Source: Candidatus Multivorans sp.
Lineage (GTDB): Bacteria; Acidobacteriota; Thermoanaerobaculia; Multivoradales; Multivoraceae
Assembly: GCA_965216125.1 (NCBI GenBank)
Contig: OZ244152.1
Span: 4,427,947-4,491,946 of the forward strand
Direction of reading: 5' to 3'
DNA length: 64,000 bases
In this document: positions 2,964 to 58,638 of the stretch, in pieces
How the letters are laid out: every line of letters begins with the position of its first letter
Numbering within the stretch: the stretch's first letter is position 1
Translations under genes and position numbers: made by a program
Notes under the pieces: model-generated
Told to the model about the DNA's origin: nothing
The model's input: the letters and a program-made list of their open reading frames with translations, nothing else
The model's database searches: none

Positions 2964-4418
2964 CTAACAGTCGTTCTCCTGCGTCCCGCCTGCGACCGGT
3001 TCGAGATCTGCCGCCAGCCCGGCTACCTCGTCGTACAGCTCGGAGCGCCGCAGGCGCAGGCGCTCCACCGTCCCGGCGCGCAGCCCCACCGTCCACAGCG
3101 CCCGCAGACCGTGACCGAGCCCGGCGATCAGGCGGTGGTACCGGAGGCCGAGCAGCGCCGACGCGGTGCACAGGCCGAGCATCCCGCCGACGCGCACCCA
3201 CAGGGATTCGGGCACCCAGTCGAATCCCGGCAACGGCTCGGTCCAGGCGATGCCGACCGCGAAGCTCGCGACGATCCACGCCGTCGGCAGAATCACGAGA
3301 CCGAGCACCATCTTGAGTCCCGCCTGCTCCTTCCTCGTCTTCGAGAGTTTCTTTGCGCCGAGCACGACCAGAAGCGCCGCAGGCAGGTTGATCAGGCTGC
3401 CGACCAGGACCACTGTGGGCAGGAGCAGCAGCATGACCAGCGCCTCGCCGCCGAGCAGGGCCAGGCGCAGCGCCGTCCGAGCCAGCGGTACGCCGTCCAG
3501 TTCCCGGTCGTTCAGGCCCAGCAGTCGTAGCGCCTCGTCGTAGCGCGTCACCCTGCGCATGAGTCGCCTCGTCCCCTTCGGATCGAGGGAGCGCCGGTTG
3601 CTGTAGCCGGCCCAGACGCGGGCAAAGCCCTGATCCCGCTCGTGCATCCGCGCCCGCCGCAGGCGCTCGCCCGCCCGGGCCGCGCCCTCGGCGCGCACCA
3701 GGGACCGCACCCGCTCCATCGCCCGGTGAATGCCCCAGCTCTCGGTCGGGTGGGTGACCTCGATCAGTTGCTCTTCGATCACGCCGGTCAGGCGATCCAC
3801 GAACGCGTCGGCAGCAGCCTCACCGGCGTCCGACTCCGGTACGCCACCGGGGCCGCAGCGGAGATCAGGCGGCAACTCGACGGGTGCGTGGAAGACGACC
3901 AGAGCCCGAGAACGAAACGCGTACTTGCGCTCGTAGTGCAGACCCACCGGCACCAGCACCGGATCGCCACCGCCCTCCCGGGCAAGTTGAAACAGGCGCG
4001 CCGCTCCGGCCCGTAACTCGAGCAGGTTCGGTTCGTCGTGCGTGGCGCCCTCCGGAAAGATCGCGATGAAGGAGTGCCGCGCCGCCTCGGCAAGAGCAGC
4101 AAGACTCCGGTGATTCGCCGCCCGGCGATCGCGGTCGCTGGCGGGGGCGCCGGCCTCGCCGCGATCCCGAGCCCGGTAGAGCTGCACGGCGCCGACGCCG
4201 CGCAGCAGCCAGCCCACCACAGGGATGCGGAACAGACCGTGACGGGCGCCGAAGGTGACCGGCCGCGGGCAGAACCCGAGGACCAGGACGCCGTCGGCGA
4301 GCCCGTTCGGATGCCACGCGACGAGCAGGCCGCCGCCGTCGCGCGGCACGTTCTCGGCGCCTGTGACTTCGACGCTGCGGAAGAACAGCCTCGCCAACAA
4401 ACGCAGAAAGAGCGTCAA
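2964..4418 (-). CDS. PlsC-family lysophospholipid/glycerol acyltransferase with C-terminal multi-transmembrane extension. The proposed start is TTG at 4418, preceded by AGGAAG; the frame is open to 4895.
   Basis: HX4-5D motif (VAWHPNGLADG) and FPEG motif (IAIFPEGATHDEP). Several C-terminal hydrophobic helices. The AGGAAG Shine-Dalgarno lies 6 nt upstream of TTG 4418, and the sequence upstream of it is a repeat element. Confidence 0.7.
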   Translation of the reverse strand: MTLFLRLLARLFFRSVEVTGAENVPRDGGGLLVAWHPNGLADGVLVLGFCPRPVTFGARHGLFRIPVVGWLLRGVGAVQLYRARDRGEAGAPASDRDRRAANHRSLAALAEAARHSFIAIFPEGATHDEPNLLELRAGAARLFQLAREGGGDPVLVPVGLHYERKYAFRSRALVVFHAPVELPPDLRCGPGGVPESDAGEAAADAFVDRLTGVIEEQLIEVTHPTESWGIHRAMERVRSLVRAEGAARAGERLRRARMHERDQGFARVWAGYSNRRSLDPKGTRRLMRRVTRYDEALRLLGLNDRELDGVPLARTALRLALLGGEALVMLLLLPTVVLVGSLINLPAALLVVLGAKKLSKTRKEQAGLKMVLGLVILPTAWIVASFAVGIAWTEPLPGFDWVPESLWVRVGGMLGLCTASALLGLRYHRLIAGLGHGLRALWTVGLRAGTVERLRLRRSELYDEVAGLAADLEPVAGGTQENDC

Positions 4419-4430
4419 GCAACGCTTCCT

Positions 4431-4508
4431 GAACCCGGGTGGCGCGTTCCGCGCCACCCGTGAACCATCCGTACGCCCGTCATCGGGCGTACGGATGACA
4501 CCCGGTGG
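4431..4508. repeat. Palindromic repeat element, copy A (same family as the tandem copies at 57961–58100)
   Basis: gaacccgggtggcgcgTTCcgcgccacccgtgaaccat + CATCCGTACGCCCG-tcat-CGGGCGTACGGATG + acacccggtgg. It matches the 57961–58100 units over about 80 % of positions, including the identical 10-bp-arm hairpin GGGTGGCGCG-N3-CGCGCCACCC. Confidence 0.6.
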
Positions 4509-4547
4509 ATCGACGCAATTCATCGACGCAGGTACATCGACGCAATT
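4509..4547. promoter_or_regulatory. Three direct repeats of ATCGACGCA with 13–14-bp spacing; candidate transcription-factor site in the divergent comM / acyltransferase intergenic region
   Basis: ATCGACGCAATT at 4509–4520, ATCGACGCA at 4522–4530, ATCGACGCAATT at 4536–4547. Confidence 0.3.
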
Positions 4548-5032
4548 GTACGCCACCGGAGACTCCCGGATCACCGCTACCGTCCGACCGGTCGGACGCT
4601 TGACAACGTCCGTTCCCGCCCCTACCGTGGTTTCATCGATGCAACTGAAGGAGGCGCCATGACACCACCGGGCCATCTCCCGCCCCCGGCCCGCCTGAGC
4701 CGAAATGCCCAGGACGCCAAGCCGGGGGCCGCCAAGTCCGCAGCCTGAGTGGACGAATGACATCCGGCAGTTCGACCGTCGCCTGAATCGCCCGAGCGTC
4801 CGCCAGATCGATGATCTGAACCGGATCGCGCCGAGGCCAACCAGGTGAGTCGAGGCCCAGCGGGCGCCTAACGCCCACCGCGAAATCGCATCCACCCAAA
4901 GCCGGGGACACCCTGAGAGCGCAGGTTCACGCCTGCGCTCTCATTGCGTTCAGGGACCAAGAAGTCGCGCAGACCTCCATCGCGCCTCGCGGCGGATCGA
5001 GGTTCTGGTAGCCGCTTTGCGTCTTAGTCCAT

Positions 5033-6550
5033 GTGATCGCTTACATGAGTTCCGCGACGCCCTGGGGCATCGAGGCGCGAGAGGTCCAGGTCGAGGTCGG
5101 GGCCGACTTCGGTCTGCCCGCGATGCAGTTGATCGGGCTGCCGGACGCCGCGGTTCGGGAGAGCCGTGACCGGGTTCGTTCCGCGATCCGCAACAGCGGC
5201 TACGACCTGAAGAACCGCAATGTCGTCATCAACCTCGCCCCCGCCGACCTGAAGAAGGAGGGAAACCAGCTCGATCTGCCGATCGCCCTGGGCCTCCTCA
5301 CGGCCCACCGCGAACTGACGACCGATTCGCTGGAGGGCCGGATGGCCTGCGGCGAGCTGGGCCTGGACGGCGAGGTACGCCCGATCCGGGGCGCCCTCCA
5401 AGTCGCCGAGTTGGCCGGCAGGCTCGGCATCCGCGAACTCCTGCTTCCGGCCTCGAACAGCCGGCAGGCCGCGGCCCTGTCCGGGACACCGGTGGTTCCG
5501 ATCACCCATCTGAGGGAGGCGATCCAGCACCTGAGCGGCGACCTGGCGATCGGCCCGGCGACTCCGCTCCCCCGTAGCGAAACGAGCGGCGCGACCCCGG
5601 ACTTCTCCGATGTCCGGGGCCAGGAAACCGCCAAGCGAGCGCTCGAGATCGCCGCCGCCGGCGGACACAACGTCCTTTTCGTTGGGCCGCCGGGCACCGG
5701 CAAGACGATGCTCGCCCGCAGGCTGCCCGGCATCCTGCCTCCGCTTACCGAAGCGGAAGCGATCGTAGTCACCAAGATCCACTCGCTGTCCGGCACCGCC
5801 CGCGGCAATGAACTGCTGTGGACACGCCCCTTTCGCAGCCCGCACGCGGGCGTGTCGTCGTCCGGGCTGATCGGCGGCGGCTCCATGCCAAGGCCGGGAG
5901 AGATCAGCCTCGCTCACGGCGGCGTGCTGTTCCTCGACGAACTGCCCGAGTTCCGCCGCGACGCGCTGGAGGCATTGCGCCAGCCGCTCGAGGACGGCGT
6001 CGTCACCGTCGTCAGGGCCCAGGCCCGGCTGACTTTCCCGGCCCGCTTCACCCTGGTCGCCGCCTGCAACCCCTGCCGCTGCGGCCATCTTGGAGACCCC
6101 CGCGCGGATTGCGCCTGTACGACCCGGGACATCGACCGCTACCGCCGTCAGCTCTCAGGACCTCTGCTCGACCGCATCGATCTCCACATCGAGATGCCGG
6201 TACCGAGCCTCGAGGAGCTCAAGGGGCCGGCCTGCGAGACGTCCGCTTCGATCGCCGAGCGGGTGAAGGCGGTCCGCCGTACCCAGGCCTCCCGGTTCCC
6301 CGCCGGACATCCGACACCGCTGAACAGCGCAATGGCGCGCCGGGACCTCGACCGCCACTGCCGGCCGACCTCCGCCGCGCAGGGCCTCATGGACGCCGCG
6401 TTCGAACGCCTGGCGATGTCCGCCCGGGCGCTGACGCGGGCGCTCAAGGTCGCTCGCACCATCGCCGACCTGGACGAGTCCCCCAAGGTCGACGTCACTC
6501 ACGTCGCGGAAGCGATCCAGTACCGGCCACTGGATCGCAGCGGACCGTGA
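5033..6550 (+). CDS. comM: YifB/ComM-family Mg-chelatase-like AAA+ ATPase
   Basis: Lon-like N-terminal domain, Walker A GPPGTGKT, ChlI/MCM-like core and C-terminal Mg_chelatase_C motifs. Confidence 0.9.
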   Translation: MIAYMSSATPWGIEAREVQVEVGADFGLPAMQLIGLPDAAVRESRDRVRSAIRNSGYDLKNRNVVINLAPADLKKEGNQLDLPIALGLLTAHRELTTDSLEGRMACGELGLDGEVRPIRGALQVAELAGRLGIRELLLPASNSRQAAALSGTPVVPITHLREAIQHLSGDLAIGPATPLPRSETSGATPDFSDVRGQETAKRALEIAAAGGHNVLFVGPPGTGKTMLARRLPGILPPLTEAEAIVVTKIHSLSGTARGNELLWTRPFRSPHAGVSSSGLIGGGSMPRPGEISLAHGGVLFLDELPEFRRDALEALRQPLEDGVVTVVRAQARLTFPARFTLVAACNPCRCGHLGDPRADCACTTRDIDRYRRQLSGPLLDRIDLHIEMPVPSLEELKGPACETSASIAERVKAVRRTQASRFPAGHPTPLNSAMARRDLDRHCRPTSAAQGLMDAAFERLAMSARALTRALKVARTIADLDESPKVDVTHVAEAIQYRPLDRSGP

Positions 6551-6789: not shown

Positions 6790-7677
6790 ATGCGATCAAG
6801 GTTCCACACGATTGTTTTCGTCCCGCACTCACAAAAGCGGACCCGGCAGTTTCGCGTCAGCAGCCGCTGGTTGACAACCGCGGCAGTCGCACTTGCTCTG
6901 GTCCTGGGGTTTGTCGGCTGGGCCACCGTCGCCCAACTGCGGTCGGCTGTGGAACTGCGCGACCTCGCCCGAATCGAGAGCGAGAACGAGGAGCTGCGAC
7001 GGGCCAACGATTCGTTCGAGACCAGCATTTCTCGCCTGCAGCAGGCGCTGACCGACGCCGAGGACCGCACGCGGGACCTCGCGATCGTTGCCGGCCTCGG
7101 GCAGATGGTAGGCGGTGAACCGGAGAACCGCCCGTCCGAAGTCGGCGCCGGCGGCAGCTACCCGAGCCCCACGGCTCCCAACAGCTACGACCTGTCCGTG
7201 CTGGAAGCCCGAACCTCCCGGCTCGACGGGCATCTCGACGAGGTGGACGGTGCCGTAGAGGATCGCCTCCTCATGCTCCGCTCAACGCCCATGACCTCAC
7301 CGGTGCGGGGCGTGATCAACAGTGGCTTCGGCTTCCGTCGCGATCCGATCACCGGGCAGCGCTCCCACCACGACGGCATCGACATCGGGGCCGACCGCGA
7401 CCAGCCGGTTTTCGCCACCGCCGACGGCATCGTCGTCCGCGCCGAAAGGGCCGGCAACCTGGGCCGCGCCGTCTACATGATCCACCGCTTCGGCTACGAG
7501 ACGCGCTTCGGCCATCTGTCGAAGATCCTGGTCGACGAGGGCCAGGAGGTCCGGCGAGGCGACATGTTGGGCTGGGTCGGCAACTCGGGACGGGCGACCG
7601 GCTATCACCTGCACTACGAAGTCCGGATCGGCGGCGACACCCGCGATCCGTTCGAGTTCATGCGAGACCAGGGTTAG
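6790..7677 (+). CDS. M23 family metallopeptidase (LytM domain) with N-terminal transmembrane/coiled-coil region
   Basis: HxxxD...HxH peptidase_M23 motifs (HDGIDIGA, GYHLHYEV). Confidence 0.85.
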   Translation: MRSRFHTIVFVPHSQKRTRQFRVSSRWLTTAAVALALVLGFVGWATVAQLRSAVELRDLARIESENEELRRANDSFETSISRLQQALTDAEDRTRDLAIVAGLGQMVGGEPENRPSEVGAGGSYPSPTAPNSYDLSVLEARTSRLDGHLDEVDGAVEDRLLMLRSTPMTSPVRGVINSGFGFRRDPITGQRSHHDGIDIGADRDQPVFATADGIVVRAERAGNLGRAVYMIHRFGYETRFGHLSKILVDEGQEVRRGDMLGWVGNSGRATGYHLHYEVRIGGDTRDPFEFMRDQG

Positions 7678-56308: not shown

Positions 56309-56572
56309 CGTCTTCCCTCCGTTCCGCCTGTAGTGACCTCCTAGCCTATCGCCAGCCACGCCCGTCCGACGCCGTCCAGTCCGCGCCGGAGGCTGGAGGG
56401 GAGGGTCCCAGCGAGGCTGTCGGCAAGCGACGGCCCAAGCCCCTACAACGACCGACACGAAACCGGAGCGCAGCCGACCGCAGCGAGCGCCAACCTCACA
56501 TCAACCAAGAGAGCGCGAGCGGCCGCAGGGACCCTCCCCTCCGGCCGCAGGAGCGGACGGGTGCACCATGCG

Positions 56573-57937
56573 CTAGCTGGCGACCTCGCTCTCGCTGCCC
56601 GGGAACAGGAGCCGGGCCATCTGGGTCTGCGACCGGTGCACGAACAGGATGACCTGGTCGTTCGCGCGCAGCACGTTGCTGCGCTCCGGCATGAACACCC
56701 GGTCGCCTCGCACCACGGCGCCCACGATCAAGCCCCTGGGCGCCTGGAGGTCGGCAAGCGTGGCGCCGGCCGCCGGGCTGGCTTCGTGGATCACGCGCTG
56801 AACCACCTGCAGGGCGCCGTCGGCCAGGTTGACCAGGTTCGCCTTGTAGCCGTTGGCGACGAAGTTGCGGACGTGGTCGATCGCCAGGGAATGCGGCGAC
56901 ACCAGCTCGACCTCGCCGAGCCGCTGCCAGAGCCGGCTCGTCGTATGGTGGATCAGAGCGACCACCTGCCGCACGCCCAACTCCTGGGCGATGAGCCCTG
57001 CCACCACGTTGCTGTCGTCGTGGCTGGTGGCCGCGATCAGGACGTCGGCCCGGCCGAGTCCCTCGCTCTCCATGGTCGCCGCGTCGATCGGATCGCCGTG
57101 CAGCACCTCGATGTCGGGAAACGACTGGGCCAGGTACTCGGCGCGCCGCCGGTCGCGCTCGATCCAGCGCAGACGCTTGACCTCGTTCCGCAACGCCTTG
57201 ACCACCGCAACCGCGGCCGAACTGCCACCGGCAACGGCCACGGTGTGGGGATGTTCGACCCGGGACGCGAACAGCTCCTCCACGCCGTGGGTGGACTTCG
57301 TGCGACAAAGGACCATGGCCAGACCGCCCGGCGCGGCCTGCAGGTCCGGACCGGGGATCGACAGTTCGTGCTCCGCATCGAAGTAGCCGACGATCCGGGC
57401 GCCCTCGGGCAGCGGCAGTTCCCGGATCGGCAGCCGGGCGACCGTGCTGTTCGCCTGCACCTGGATCGTCCTCAACTCGAAACGTCCCTTGGCCAGATAG
57501 TCGACTTCGTGGGTATGGTGGCCGAGCACGACGTTCAGGATCGCGTTGGTCGCCAGACTCTGGGGCGACAGCAGGAGGTCGGCGCCGAACAACCGCTCGT
57601 AGGAGCGGCGGTAGACGGTCAGATCCTCGGACGTGTCGAGCCGCACCACGCACCGCTTCGCGCCCAGGTTGCGGGCAATCACGGACGCCACCAGGTTCGC
57701 CTCCTCCGACGAGGAGGCGGCGATGAAGAGGTCCGCGGCCTCGACGTGAGCCCGCTCGAGAACCGCCTGATGGGCGCCGTTGCCGACCACGAAGGCCGCG
57801 TCCAGCTCCTCCTCTATCCGTTGCCCCTTGTCCGGATCGATGTCGATCAGGGTCAGACTCCGGCCTTCACGGCCAAACGCCTCGGCAATGTGGAAGCCTA
57901 TGTCGCCGATGCCCATGATGCAGTAGTGGCCCTTCGT
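56573..57937 (-). CDS. trkA: Trk potassium-uptake regulatory protein TrkA (two RCK/NAD-binding domains). GTG start at 57937.
   Basis: IMGIGDIG and VAGGSSAAVAV Rossmann motifs with two RCK_C domains; 455 aa. Confidence 0.85.
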   Translation of the reverse strand, partial: TKGHYCIMGIGDIGFHIAEAFGREGRSLTLIDIDPDKGQRIEEELDAAFVVGNGAHQAVLERAHVEAADLFIAASSSEEANLVASVIARNLGAKRCVVRLDTSEDLTVYRRSYERLFGADLLLSPQSLATNAILNVVLGHHTHEVDYLAKGRFELRTIQVQANSTVARLPIRELPLPEGARIVGYFDAEHELSIPGPDLQAAPGGLAMVLCRTKSTHGVEELFASRVEHPHTVAVAGGSSAAVAVVKALRNEVKRLRWIERDRRRAEYLAQSFPDIEVLHGDPIDAATMESEGLGRADVLIAATSHDDSNVVAGLIAQELGVRQVVALIHHTTSRLWQRLGEVELVSPHSLAIDHVRNFVANGYKANLVNLADGALQVVQRVIHEASPAAGATLADLQAPRGLIVGAVVRGDRVFMPERSNVLRANDQVILFVHRSQTQMARLLFPGSESEVAS

Positions 57938-57960
57938 GCTCACGACCTGTCGAGCATAAG

Positions 57961-58100
57961 CGAACCCGGGTGGCGCGACCCGCGTCACCCGCGAACCATT
58001 CCGTTCGCGAGTCATCGAGCGGACGGATGACACCCGGGTGGCGCGACCCGCGCCACCCGCGAACCATTCCGTTCGCGAGTCATCGAGCGGACGGATGACA
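57961..58100. repeat. Two perfect tandem copies (68-bp period, one mismatch) of the palindromic repeat element, plus the start of a third, in the trkA 5' leader
   Basis: Units at 57965–58032 and 58033–58100. Each carries GGGTGGCGCG-acc-CGCG(T/C)CACCC, GCGAAC-cattcc-GTTCGC and TCATC-N9-GATGA hairpins. Same family as 4431–4508. Confidence 0.7.
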
Positions 58101-58203
58101 CACCCCGCAGTCCGTGTGGGACTCCGACGGCCCACGATGGTCTGTTACGGTAGCCGCTTCCTTCCGCAAGGCGGTGACTCCCAGCCCCGCCCGAGGGTCG
58201 CTT

Positions 58204-58638
58204 GTGAGCGAACTGAAGACGAAGCAGAACGACGCCAGCGTCGAGATGTTCCTGAGGGCGGTCGGCAACGATCGGCGGCGTGAGGACAGCTTCACCGTCC
58301 TTGAGCTCATGAAGCGGATCACCGGTGAAGAGCCCCGGATGTGGGGCGCCGCGATCGTCGGCTTCGGCAGCTACCGCTACAGGTACGCGAGCGGCCGCTC
58401 CGGAGAAATGCCGCGCATCGGTTTCTCGCCCCGCAAGCAGAGCCTGACCGTCTATGTCATGCCCGGGTTCTCGGACTATGACGAGATCCTGTCCCGGCTC
58501 GGCAAGCACCGGACCGGCAAGTCCTGCCTCTACATCAACAAGCTGGCCGACATCGACATGGACGTGCTTGAAGACCTGACCAGGAGTTCGCTCGACGCGA
58601 TGCGGGAGAAGTACCCGGAGGAACGACCAGGCACATGA
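58204..58638 (+). CDS. DUF1801 (YdhG/YjdI-like) domain protein. GTG start at 58204.
   Basis: Conserved FGSYRYRYASGRSGEMPRIGFSPRKQSLTVY core. Confidence 0.7.
   Translation: MSELKTKQNDASVEMFLRAVGNDRRREDSFTVLELMKRITGEEPRMWGAAIVGFGSYRYRYASGRSGEMPRIGFSPRKQSLTVYVMPGFSDYDEILSRLGKHRTGKSCLYINKLADIDMDVLEDLTRSSLDAMREKYPEERPGT

Follow-up and report, generated by a model that had tools for sequence, protein, structure and literature searches.

Three copies of a short palindromic element lie between genes in a 64,000-nt stretch of 'Candidatus Multivorans' sp. DNA (contig OZ244152.1, positions 4,427,947 to 4,491,946 of the forward strand; "the window" denotes this whole stretch), two in tandem upstream of the K+ uptake gene trkA and one upstream of a PlsC-type acyltransferase gene. 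Is the element a regulatory leader that these genes share, or a mobile repeat that has come to rest beside both? A preliminary description of the locus had left the choice between the two. With high confidence, the element is a dispersed mobile repeat of REP (repetitive extragenic palindrome) or MITE (miniature inverted-repeat transposable element) character and not a gene-specific signal. In the explanation that we consider best, and hold to be probable, the feature, duplicated locally here, belongs to a dispersed family of small mobile repeats without coding capacity, similar to REPs and BIMEs (bacterial interspersed mosaic elements), and is moved as single-stranded DNA by a HUH/Y1 transposase of the RAYT (REP-associated tyrosine transposase) type.

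The tandem array upstream of trkA occupies positions 57964-58101 (Tandem Repeats Finder: period 68, 2.0 copies, 98% matches, score 269) and is composed, as first described, of two 68-nt units with a single T/C difference. Unit 1 (57964-58031, + strand; ACCCGGGTGG...GGATGAC) and unit 2 (58032-58099, + strand) differ solely at 57985 versus 58053. Two hairpins make up the fold, H1 (GGGTGGCGCG / CGCGCCACCC; 23 nt, arms of 10-11 bp and a 3-nt loop) and H2 (TCCGTGCGCCCG-TCAT-CGGGCGCACGGA, extended by CCA/TGG; 28-34 nt, arms of 12-15 bp). In unit 1, H1 (57968-57990) contains one G·T pair contributed by T57985 and H2 (58000-58027) is degenerate, with one G·T pair and two mismatches; in unit 2, H1 (58036-58058) has perfect 10-bp arms and H2 spans 58068-58095. 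The H1 palindrome at trkA reads GGGTGGCGCG-ACC-CGCG(T/C)CACCC, and its first base lies 24 nt from the trkA GTG start codon at 57943, the spacing originally given for the repeat, so that this figure holds for the palindrome; the tandem unit itself begins 20 nt from the codon. The third copy (4433-4499, + strand; 67 nt, without the bulge base before H2) comprises H1 at 4437-4459 and H2 at 4466-4497, the latter with the perfect 14-bp arms already remarked on (CATCCGTACGCCCG-TCAT-CGGGCGTACGGATG). Its identity to the trkA units is 86-87% (BLAST; match 4431-4502), slightly above the earlier estimate of about 80%. As DNA the third copy folds into a clean H1 and H2 (-36 kcal/mol, z = -8.5), and a trkA unit folds at -21.8 kcal/mol (z = -3.1). 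A GA dinucleotide, the preferred insertion context described below, stands directly 5' of unit 1 (57962-57963, + strand) and of the third copy (4431-4432), and together with the first two bases of the unit it forms a GAAC tag. All three copies are on the + strand, each directly upstream of a minus-strand gene, in agreement with the common orientation first reported; 12 nt separate the third from the TTG start codon of the acyltransferase gene. A covariance model (R1) built from 101 family members scores units 1 and 2 and the third copy at 65.0, 81.6 and 93.6 bits, respectively. These are the only copies in the window, the next and unrelated match scoring 15.5 bits, and a covariance-model search with filters off returned no more diverged copy above that value.

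The family extends far beyond the window. A pattern scan with CCGGGTGGCGCGNNNCGCGYCACCCG over one genome per species matched at least 113 stretches, 109 of which are full-family copies in Acidobacteriota metagenome-assembled genomes (MAGs); in three loci (L063, L068 and L085; such L numbers designate individual loci) only the H1-like palindrome is present. The source MAGs are labeled Thermoanaerobaculia, 'Ca. Multivorans' or Acidobacteria, with a few contigs from Vicinamibacteraceae or Holophagales, and nearly all matches listed place the family within this acidobacterial clade (Thermoanaerobaculia / 'Ca. Multivorans'). A profile search of the 113 loci and the window yielded 136 unique full-length copies, about 21 of which do not match the seed pattern, and 101 distinct copies give the consensus GAACCCGGGTGGCGCGATCCGCGCCACCCGYGAACCAGTCCGTGCGCCCGTCATCGGGCGCACGGATGGCA. 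On complete chromosomes copies are spread over the whole length and on both strands, with up to 20 mapped on one chromosome (partial data). Sub-families A-D, assigned by regular expressions on the flanking sequence, are crude (71 copies fall under 'other') and serve for qualitative use only.

The copies avoid genes and show no preference for gene starts. By the calls of a simple, home-made and crude codon-usage predictor trained on the same sequences, 123 of the 136 copies lie outside genes, though intergenic DNA makes up only 12.8% of the sequence. Seven of the 13 overlaps are artefacts at the ends of open reading frames (ORFs) that have no coding signal beyond the element, and about six may be truly intragenic, so that about 90-95% of copies are extragenic. 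The intragenic candidates (L082 4017-4088, L052 1349-1420, L093 4570-4640 and some three more) sit in long ORFs with coding signal on both sides; they may be in-frame insertions of the kind described in some REP families, or fused gene calls. Relative to the element, the upstream and downstream flanking genes are opposite/opposite at 44 copies, opposite/same (divergent) at 31, same/same at 23 and same/opposite (convergent) at 17. Flanks adjoin gene starts 129 times and gene ends 101 times, and the functions of the neighbors are unrelated. Starts and ends are thus similarly represented, and the positional check that had been proposed therefore reveals no leader bias.

Secondly, the fold is conserved across the family. 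H1 and H2 are unlike in sequence and are arranged head-to-tail as two separate hairpins, a format that resembles a BIME module made of two REP-type units, and in the alignment of 101 copies 97.1% of cells pair. Eleven H2 pairs are changed on both sides, compared with 2.6 ± 1.3 in shuffled alignments (0 of 500 reach the observed number), and sliding the partner by 1-3 columns as a control leaves pairing at only 28-50%. The covariation looked for in the preliminary description is therefore present in H2. In the seed copies the search pattern dictates H1; copies that it did not select contain compensated H1 changes (for example GGTTGG/CCAACC and GGGTCGCGC/GCGCGACCC). Three hairpins per unit had been proposed, and the two small ones among them (GCGAAC-N6-GTTCGC and TCATC-N9-GATGA) do occur in the trkA units; they are local accidents that arise because H2 is degenerate there, and the family conserves only H1 and H2. 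Covariation in an inverted repeat alone cannot separate structure at the RNA level from structure at the DNA level.

The mismatches distinguish the two strands. Stems contain 56 G·T and 15 A·C mismatches (11:0 in H1, 45:15 in the inner 12 pairs of H2), an asymmetry with a binomial p of about 1e-6 for copies that are not fully independent. The excess of G·T over A·C identifies the structured strand as the + strand of the window, complementary to the mRNAs of trkA and the acyltransferase gene; hairpins in the sense of the trkA mRNA would carry A·C mismatches. Because the orientation of genes around the copies is mixed, the asymmetry follows the element and not transcription, and it fits an enzyme that reads one strand of DNA.

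Thirdly, the element is present or absent as a discrete unit. The unit that moves measures 68 nt (5'-ACCCGGGTGG...GGATGRC-3'; exactly 68 nt in 80 of 108 copies) and has no terminal inverted repeats. Five pairs of filled and empty sites have identical boundaries and no target duplication. In the first pair, L017 is filled where the window is empty, downstream of trkA (junction 56518|56519 within the site GCGA|GCGG, 56515-56522, + strand, inside another repeat); in an otherwise collinear alignment the L017 insert is exactly ACCCGGGTGG...GGATGAC (68 nt), placed between GCGA and GC with no duplication of the flank, and the simulated empty site matches the window at 56518|56519 without gaps over 90 nt. 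The second pair consists of filled and empty paralogues 265 bp apart in L032, and the others are L073 against L023/L042, L107 against L010, and L034 against L070. When the two flanks of each copy were joined in silico, many further gapless matches that span the junction turned up elsewhere. The insertion context is constrained, with G at -2 in 92 of 108 copies and A at -1 in 96 of 108, so that GA precedes about 88% of units, and several insertions lie in the loops of other hairpin repeats, as in GCGGGCC-AGA|A-GGCCCGC. The repeat that surrounds the empty site of the window (56370-56575, past the trkA stop codon) is an inverted repeat built on GGGACCCTCCCCTCC (56393-56409, - strand; 56528-56544, + strand) and belongs to a dispersed 'C scaffold' (CAGCGAGCGCCAACC...GCGA|GC...GGGACCC...GGACGGGTG) that hosts the 68-nt unit in many genomes and is empty here.

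The trkA tandem units share these exact boundaries (GCGA|unit|unit|ACACCCC), so the array has the appearance of a unit deposited twice at a single GA target. Both units carry locus-specific variants that are found also in the single orthologous copy of L008, and the second unit thus derives from the resident one. Across relatives the trkA site holds H2 only (L017), one H1-H2 unit (L008) or two (the window), and copies consisting of H2 only occur at other loci as well, so H1 and H2 behave as separable modules. Doublets, tandem or closely spaced, are seen at L005 (3636-3776), L003 (3177-3315) and L095 (2932-3109), that of L003 at the acyltransferase site, which in the window holds one copy; such independent doublets in other genomes indicate that local duplication of the element is recurrent. 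Four further genomes (five in total) have a counterpart of the single acyltransferase copy of the window at the orthologous site, within flanks that are 81-92% identical; an H2 base pair of the L022 counterpart has undergone a compensatory swap (G-C/C-G). The region 4419-5032 is equally conserved throughout, so the retention of the element there is not exceptional.

Finally, a transposase gene of the appropriate class is associated with the family. In L011, taken from the chromosome that resembles the window most closely, a 214-aa ORF (2169-2813, - strand) lies between two oppositely oriented copies and matches Pfam Y1_Tnp (33.7 bits, cut-off 23). Its best solved relative is E. coli TnpA-REP (4ER8, E = 1.9e-7), and in the alignment the HVH of the ORF corresponds to HMH (the HUH motif) and its YIEGNP to YIYINP (the class-2 Y...NP motif). 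The protein has thousands of homologues, many named at source 'REP element-mobilizing transposase RayT', and its guide-recognition segment reads W...D-R and in this resembles subclasses 2.5/2.7 of Quentin et al. 2018 (PMC6006769). The gene stands between inward-pointing arrays, in the order one H1-H2 unit, three copies of a third hairpin (hp3; CTGGGAAC-GCGGGCRTCYYGCCCGC-ATCCGG), the RAYT gene, two hp3, a second H1-H2 unit and two further hp3. Six additional RAYT homologues (59-77% identity, L114-L119) each have inverted hp3 flanks, so that inverted hp3 brackets the gene in seven of seven loci and is thus the consistent partner of the RAYT. In L114, about 16 head-to-tail hp3 copies (26-nt period, CCCTGGGAACGCGGGCGTCYCGCCCG) lie directly upstream of the RAYT gene (3530-3950), with two inverted copies downstream, an array that is unusually long for the REP array of a REPtron. 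A GAAC tag precedes H1 in 101 of 136 copies, H2 in 121 of 136 and hp3 in 50 of 88, and the 68-nt unit frequently clusters together with hp3; this common format would tie the unit to the RAYT/hp3 system. No RAYT gene was found in the window by tblastn, and tblastn with the RAYT over about 1 Mb of loci returned only L011. The six further RAYT loci, flanked by hp3 only, weaken the case for regarding the H1-H2 core as the flanking repeat proper to the RAYT.

Taken together, these results argue for the RAYT-driven mobile repeat introduced above. The extragenic family with its 68-nt boundaries, GA context and one-sided structure, inserted without target duplication, and the RAYT gene set in inverted arrays of GAAC-tagged hairpins are observations; from them we infer that the H1-H2 unit is moved by this RAYT or a relative, by a single-strand mechanism. 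The preliminary suggestion of a previously undescribed REP/MITE-like mobile family is thus upheld by its occurrence at 113 or more loci, the extragenic bias, the 68-nt presence/absence polymorphisms and the REPtron-like setting of the RAYT. In the mechanism we envisage, a RAYT (TnpA-REP) type HUH/Y1 transposase would recognize the hairpins on one strand (+ in the window) and cut and rejoin beside the tag, so that the unit enters 3' of a GA dinucleotide; no target duplication would be made and terminal inverted repeats would not be needed. The trkA tandem pair would then have arisen when the resident copy was, very recently, deposited again at its own GA target, or alternatively by slippage at the same boundaries; the trkA and acyltransferase copies would be old, vertically inherited insertions in divergent promoter regions whose effect on either gene, if any, would be incidental and not part of a shared regulatory program. 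A more elaborate version, which we offer tentatively, would make the 68-nt unit a hitch-hiker mobilized in trans by a RAYT that has hp3 flanks, with recognition driven by the tag and not by the hairpin and with preferential nesting in the loops or tags of other REP-like hairpins; the family would then be a third, GAAC-tagged REP super-family beside those tagged GTAG and CGTC, in which a head-to-tail heterodimer transposes.

Several points weigh against the RAYT-driven explanation. Template switching can generate compensatory changes in inverted repeats in the absence of selection, and the local duplication at trkA could be replication slippage on a 2-nt AC microhomology. The L011 ORF scores 79.8 bits against the NCBIfam model 'REP-associated tyrosine transposase' (REP_Tyr_transpos), 0.2 bits short of the cut-off of 80. 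The H1-H2 unit directly flanks the RAYT gene in only one of the seven loci (L011) and the hp3 stem differs from those of H1 and H2, so that the action of a RAYT on H1/H2 is itself something that we infer. The GAAC tag is neither of the two, GTAG and CGTC, that are carried by the described REP super-families (PMC3733652), so that the element falls outside both, and it differs as well from the foot of class 3, reported as CnGA (PMC6006769). The orientation of the copies relative to GC skew (61 versus 75 around 136 copies, partial data) shows no clear bias, nor does their strand follow a clear pattern with chromosome position on 11 chromosomes (partial data). An orientation bias related to replication is often displayed by elements of the IS200/IS605 type. 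To these may be added that the seed pattern demands a perfect H1, that the count of at least 113 stretches is a lower bound, and that the crude gene calls underlie the extragenic count.

Among the alternatives, the one that survives best treats the unit as a miniature derivative (a MITE or palindrome-associated transposable element) of an IS200/IS605 insertion sequence (IS), with H1 and H2 as the ends of the IS and the TnpA of the IS, not a RAYT, as the enzyme. Two unlike subterminal hairpins, the lack of terminal inverted repeats and of target duplication, and insertion 3' of a short specific sequence are hallmarks of IS200/IS605 transposition, known from IS608. (IS608 transposition is summarized in PMC6006769.) This derivation is nonetheless unlikely, as about 1 Mb of sequence around the loci revealed no gene of the tnpA/tnpB type with H1 and H2 at its ends, the Y1 enzyme at the one locus where such an enzyme adjoins the unit is a class-2 RAYT (Y...NP) in a REPtron-like arrangement, and the separate occurrence of H1 and H2 fits REP modules better than the fixed ends of an IS.

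Somewhat harder to sustain, and in our view improbable, is a structural element that serves the host (a terminator, mRNA-stabilizing hairpins, or a nucleoid/topoisomerase site as proposed for E. coli BIMEs) and has been spread by recombination. Many copies, especially those with hp3 and CCGGCGCGAAGCGCCGG hairpins, do lie 4-30 nt past stop codons in sense orientation, the hairpins are strong, and REPs have documented roles of this kind (PMC6006769). The window copies, however, are upstream of genes, antisense and without a T-tract, and the terminator scan was negative; exact 68-nt insertions without junction homology, often in hairpin loops, are not expected from recombination. A structural role is plausible for sense copies just past stop codons and not for the window copies, and it is compatible with mobility followed by co-option. 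An intrinsic terminator was considered separately and rejected, H1 being followed by GCGAAC on the + strand and GGGTTC on the - strand with no T/U tract, and scans of both intergenic regions for promoter and terminator consensus sequences were negative at the repeats.

A shared cis-regulatory leader (a structured RNA in the 5' untranslated region (5'UTR) or an operator array) that would co-regulate trkA and the acyltransferase operon is very improbable, because its support (three window copies just upstream of the ribosome-binding site (RBS) or start codon of a minus-strand gene, an H1 that abuts the Shine-Dalgarno sequence AGGAAG, and the copy retained in five genomes with the compensatory H2 swap of L022) is met by the same unit at more than 100 unrelated loci, at gene ends as often as starts, in both orientations and also inside other repeats, by a trkA site that varies among relatives, by G·T tolerance on the strand antisense to both mRNAs, by the equal conservation of the rest of 4419-5032, and by the lack of any Rfam family. 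The proposed link between K+ uptake and envelope lipids is accordingly not upheld. As to known riboswitches, an Rfam scan of the whole window at the gathering threshold returned nothing, and permissive scans of both sites gave sub-threshold noise only (RsmW at 27 bits against a gathering threshold of 52, plus miRNA models). A still weaker addition to the tentative hitch-hiker version would be the co-option, as a leader hairpin, of the copy that five species retain at the acyltransferase RBS.

Both insertion sites of the window are divergent intergenic regions in DNA of 68% G+C that is about 92% identical over 8 kb to the 'Candidatus Multivorans' chromosome OZ251997.1. The genes on either side provide context and lie outside the element. 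At the first site trkA (56573-57943, - strand; Pfam TrkA_N and TrkA_C) faces a DUF1801 gene (58204-58638, + strand). A block shared there by the window, L008 and L017 (58140-58175; GTCTG(T/C)TACGGTAGCCGCTTCC, with the palindrome CTACGGTAG) is a candidate trkA promoter or operator, and if it serves as such both units would lie in the trkA 5'UTR; should the trkA promoter lie beyond 58100, the leader would hold the reverse complement of both units. At the second site the PlsC-type acyltransferase gene (2964-4418, - strand; Pfam PF01553), whose RBS AGGAAG (4425-4430) abuts the third copy, faces a ComM/Mg-chelatase-like gene (5033-6550, + strand).

The 614-nt region between these last two genes matches the coding sequence in its degree of conservation across five genomes. 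Its + strand contains, within 4503-4960, a sigma-70-like promoter (TTGACA at 4600-4605, N17, TACCGT at 4623-4628), followed by AAGGAGG and an ATG that opens an ORF of about 31 codons (MTPPGHLPPPARLSRNAQDAKPGAAKSAA), then by about 200 conserved nt and a hairpin (GAGAGCGCAGG-TTCAC-GCCTGCGCTCTC, near 4925-4955). The segment could be an unannotated small gene or non-coding RNA; it has no Rfam match. Directly 3' of the third copy, three tandem copies of ATCGACGCAA(TTC) with a period of 14 (4509-4547; Tandem Repeats Finder score 55) are joined by a fourth, ATCGATGCAA, at about 4635-4644, just past the putative -10 box. The orthologous loci L061, L027, L003 and L022 conserve all four, which resemble operator or iteron sites at which a DNA-binding protein would act on the divergent promoters. 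Elsewhere, in L114, two inverted 68-nt units (6167-6237, + strand; 7131-7202, - strand) bracket a RelE / MqsA-type toxin-antitoxin pair (L114 6167-7202).

These results dispose of the tempting but wrong inference that K+ uptake and lipid genes are linked in their regulation, and they document a repeat family from an uncultured and little-studied acidobacterial lineage known mainly from MAGs. The filled/empty pairs, the discrete 68-nt unit, the GAAC tag, the nesting and the candidate RAYT form a natural data set for work on mobile DNA, in which recognition and movement by the RAYT become directly testable with few oligonucleotides. In practical terms, such repeats can break assemblies, mislead screens for non-coding RNAs and riboswitches, and serve as strain-typing markers in these MAGs.

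How does the family compare with known systems? A literature search found no described REPs or palindromic repeats for Thermoanaerobaculia or 'Candidatus Multivorans'. The kind of element is well known; what is new is the GAAC tag, a moving unit of unlike hairpins arranged head-to-tail, and the nesting in other hairpin repeats. The closest parallel is the REPtron of E. coli and Pseudomonas, in which REPs and BIMEs are paired with a RAYT. Like those, the elements described here are short imperfect palindromes (H1 at 23 nt and H2 at 28-34 nt fall within the roughly 20-40 nt of REPs) that carry an unpaired 5' tetranucleotide tag, occur in many dispersed and overwhelmingly intergenic copies per genome, combine hairpin subtypes in mosaic clusters and persist vertically for long periods at orthologous sites; like those, they are accompanied by a single-copy HUH/Y1 gene, here of class 2, with HUH and Y...NP motifs and flanking inverted arrays, of hp3 in all seven loci and including the H1-H2 unit in one. 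They differ in the GAAC tag, in the third hairpin hp3 that takes the place of H1/H2 as the consistent flank of the RAYT, and in a moving unit that is a 68-nt head-to-tail pair of unlike hairpins, head-to-tail dimers being rare or absent in most described REP families (PMC3733652). REPINs (Bertels & Rainey 2011) are likewise non-autonomous units of two REP-like modules that are presumably replicated by a RAYT and vertically inherited. A REPIN, however, consists of two inverted copies of one REP that form one long hairpin, and this assignment was rejected for the present unit, as H1 and H2 are unlike, stand in direct orientation and do not form a single long hairpin. IS200/IS605 elements such as IS608 and ISDra2 resemble the unit in their subterminal hairpins, their lack of terminal inverted repeats and target duplication, their insertion next to a short specific sequence on the 5' side and their strand-specific structure; in contrast to them, the unit is only 68 nt long and without a transposase, has no parent IS in the roughly 1 Mb of loci searched, and is associated with an enzyme of the RAYT class and not of the TnpA-IS200 class.

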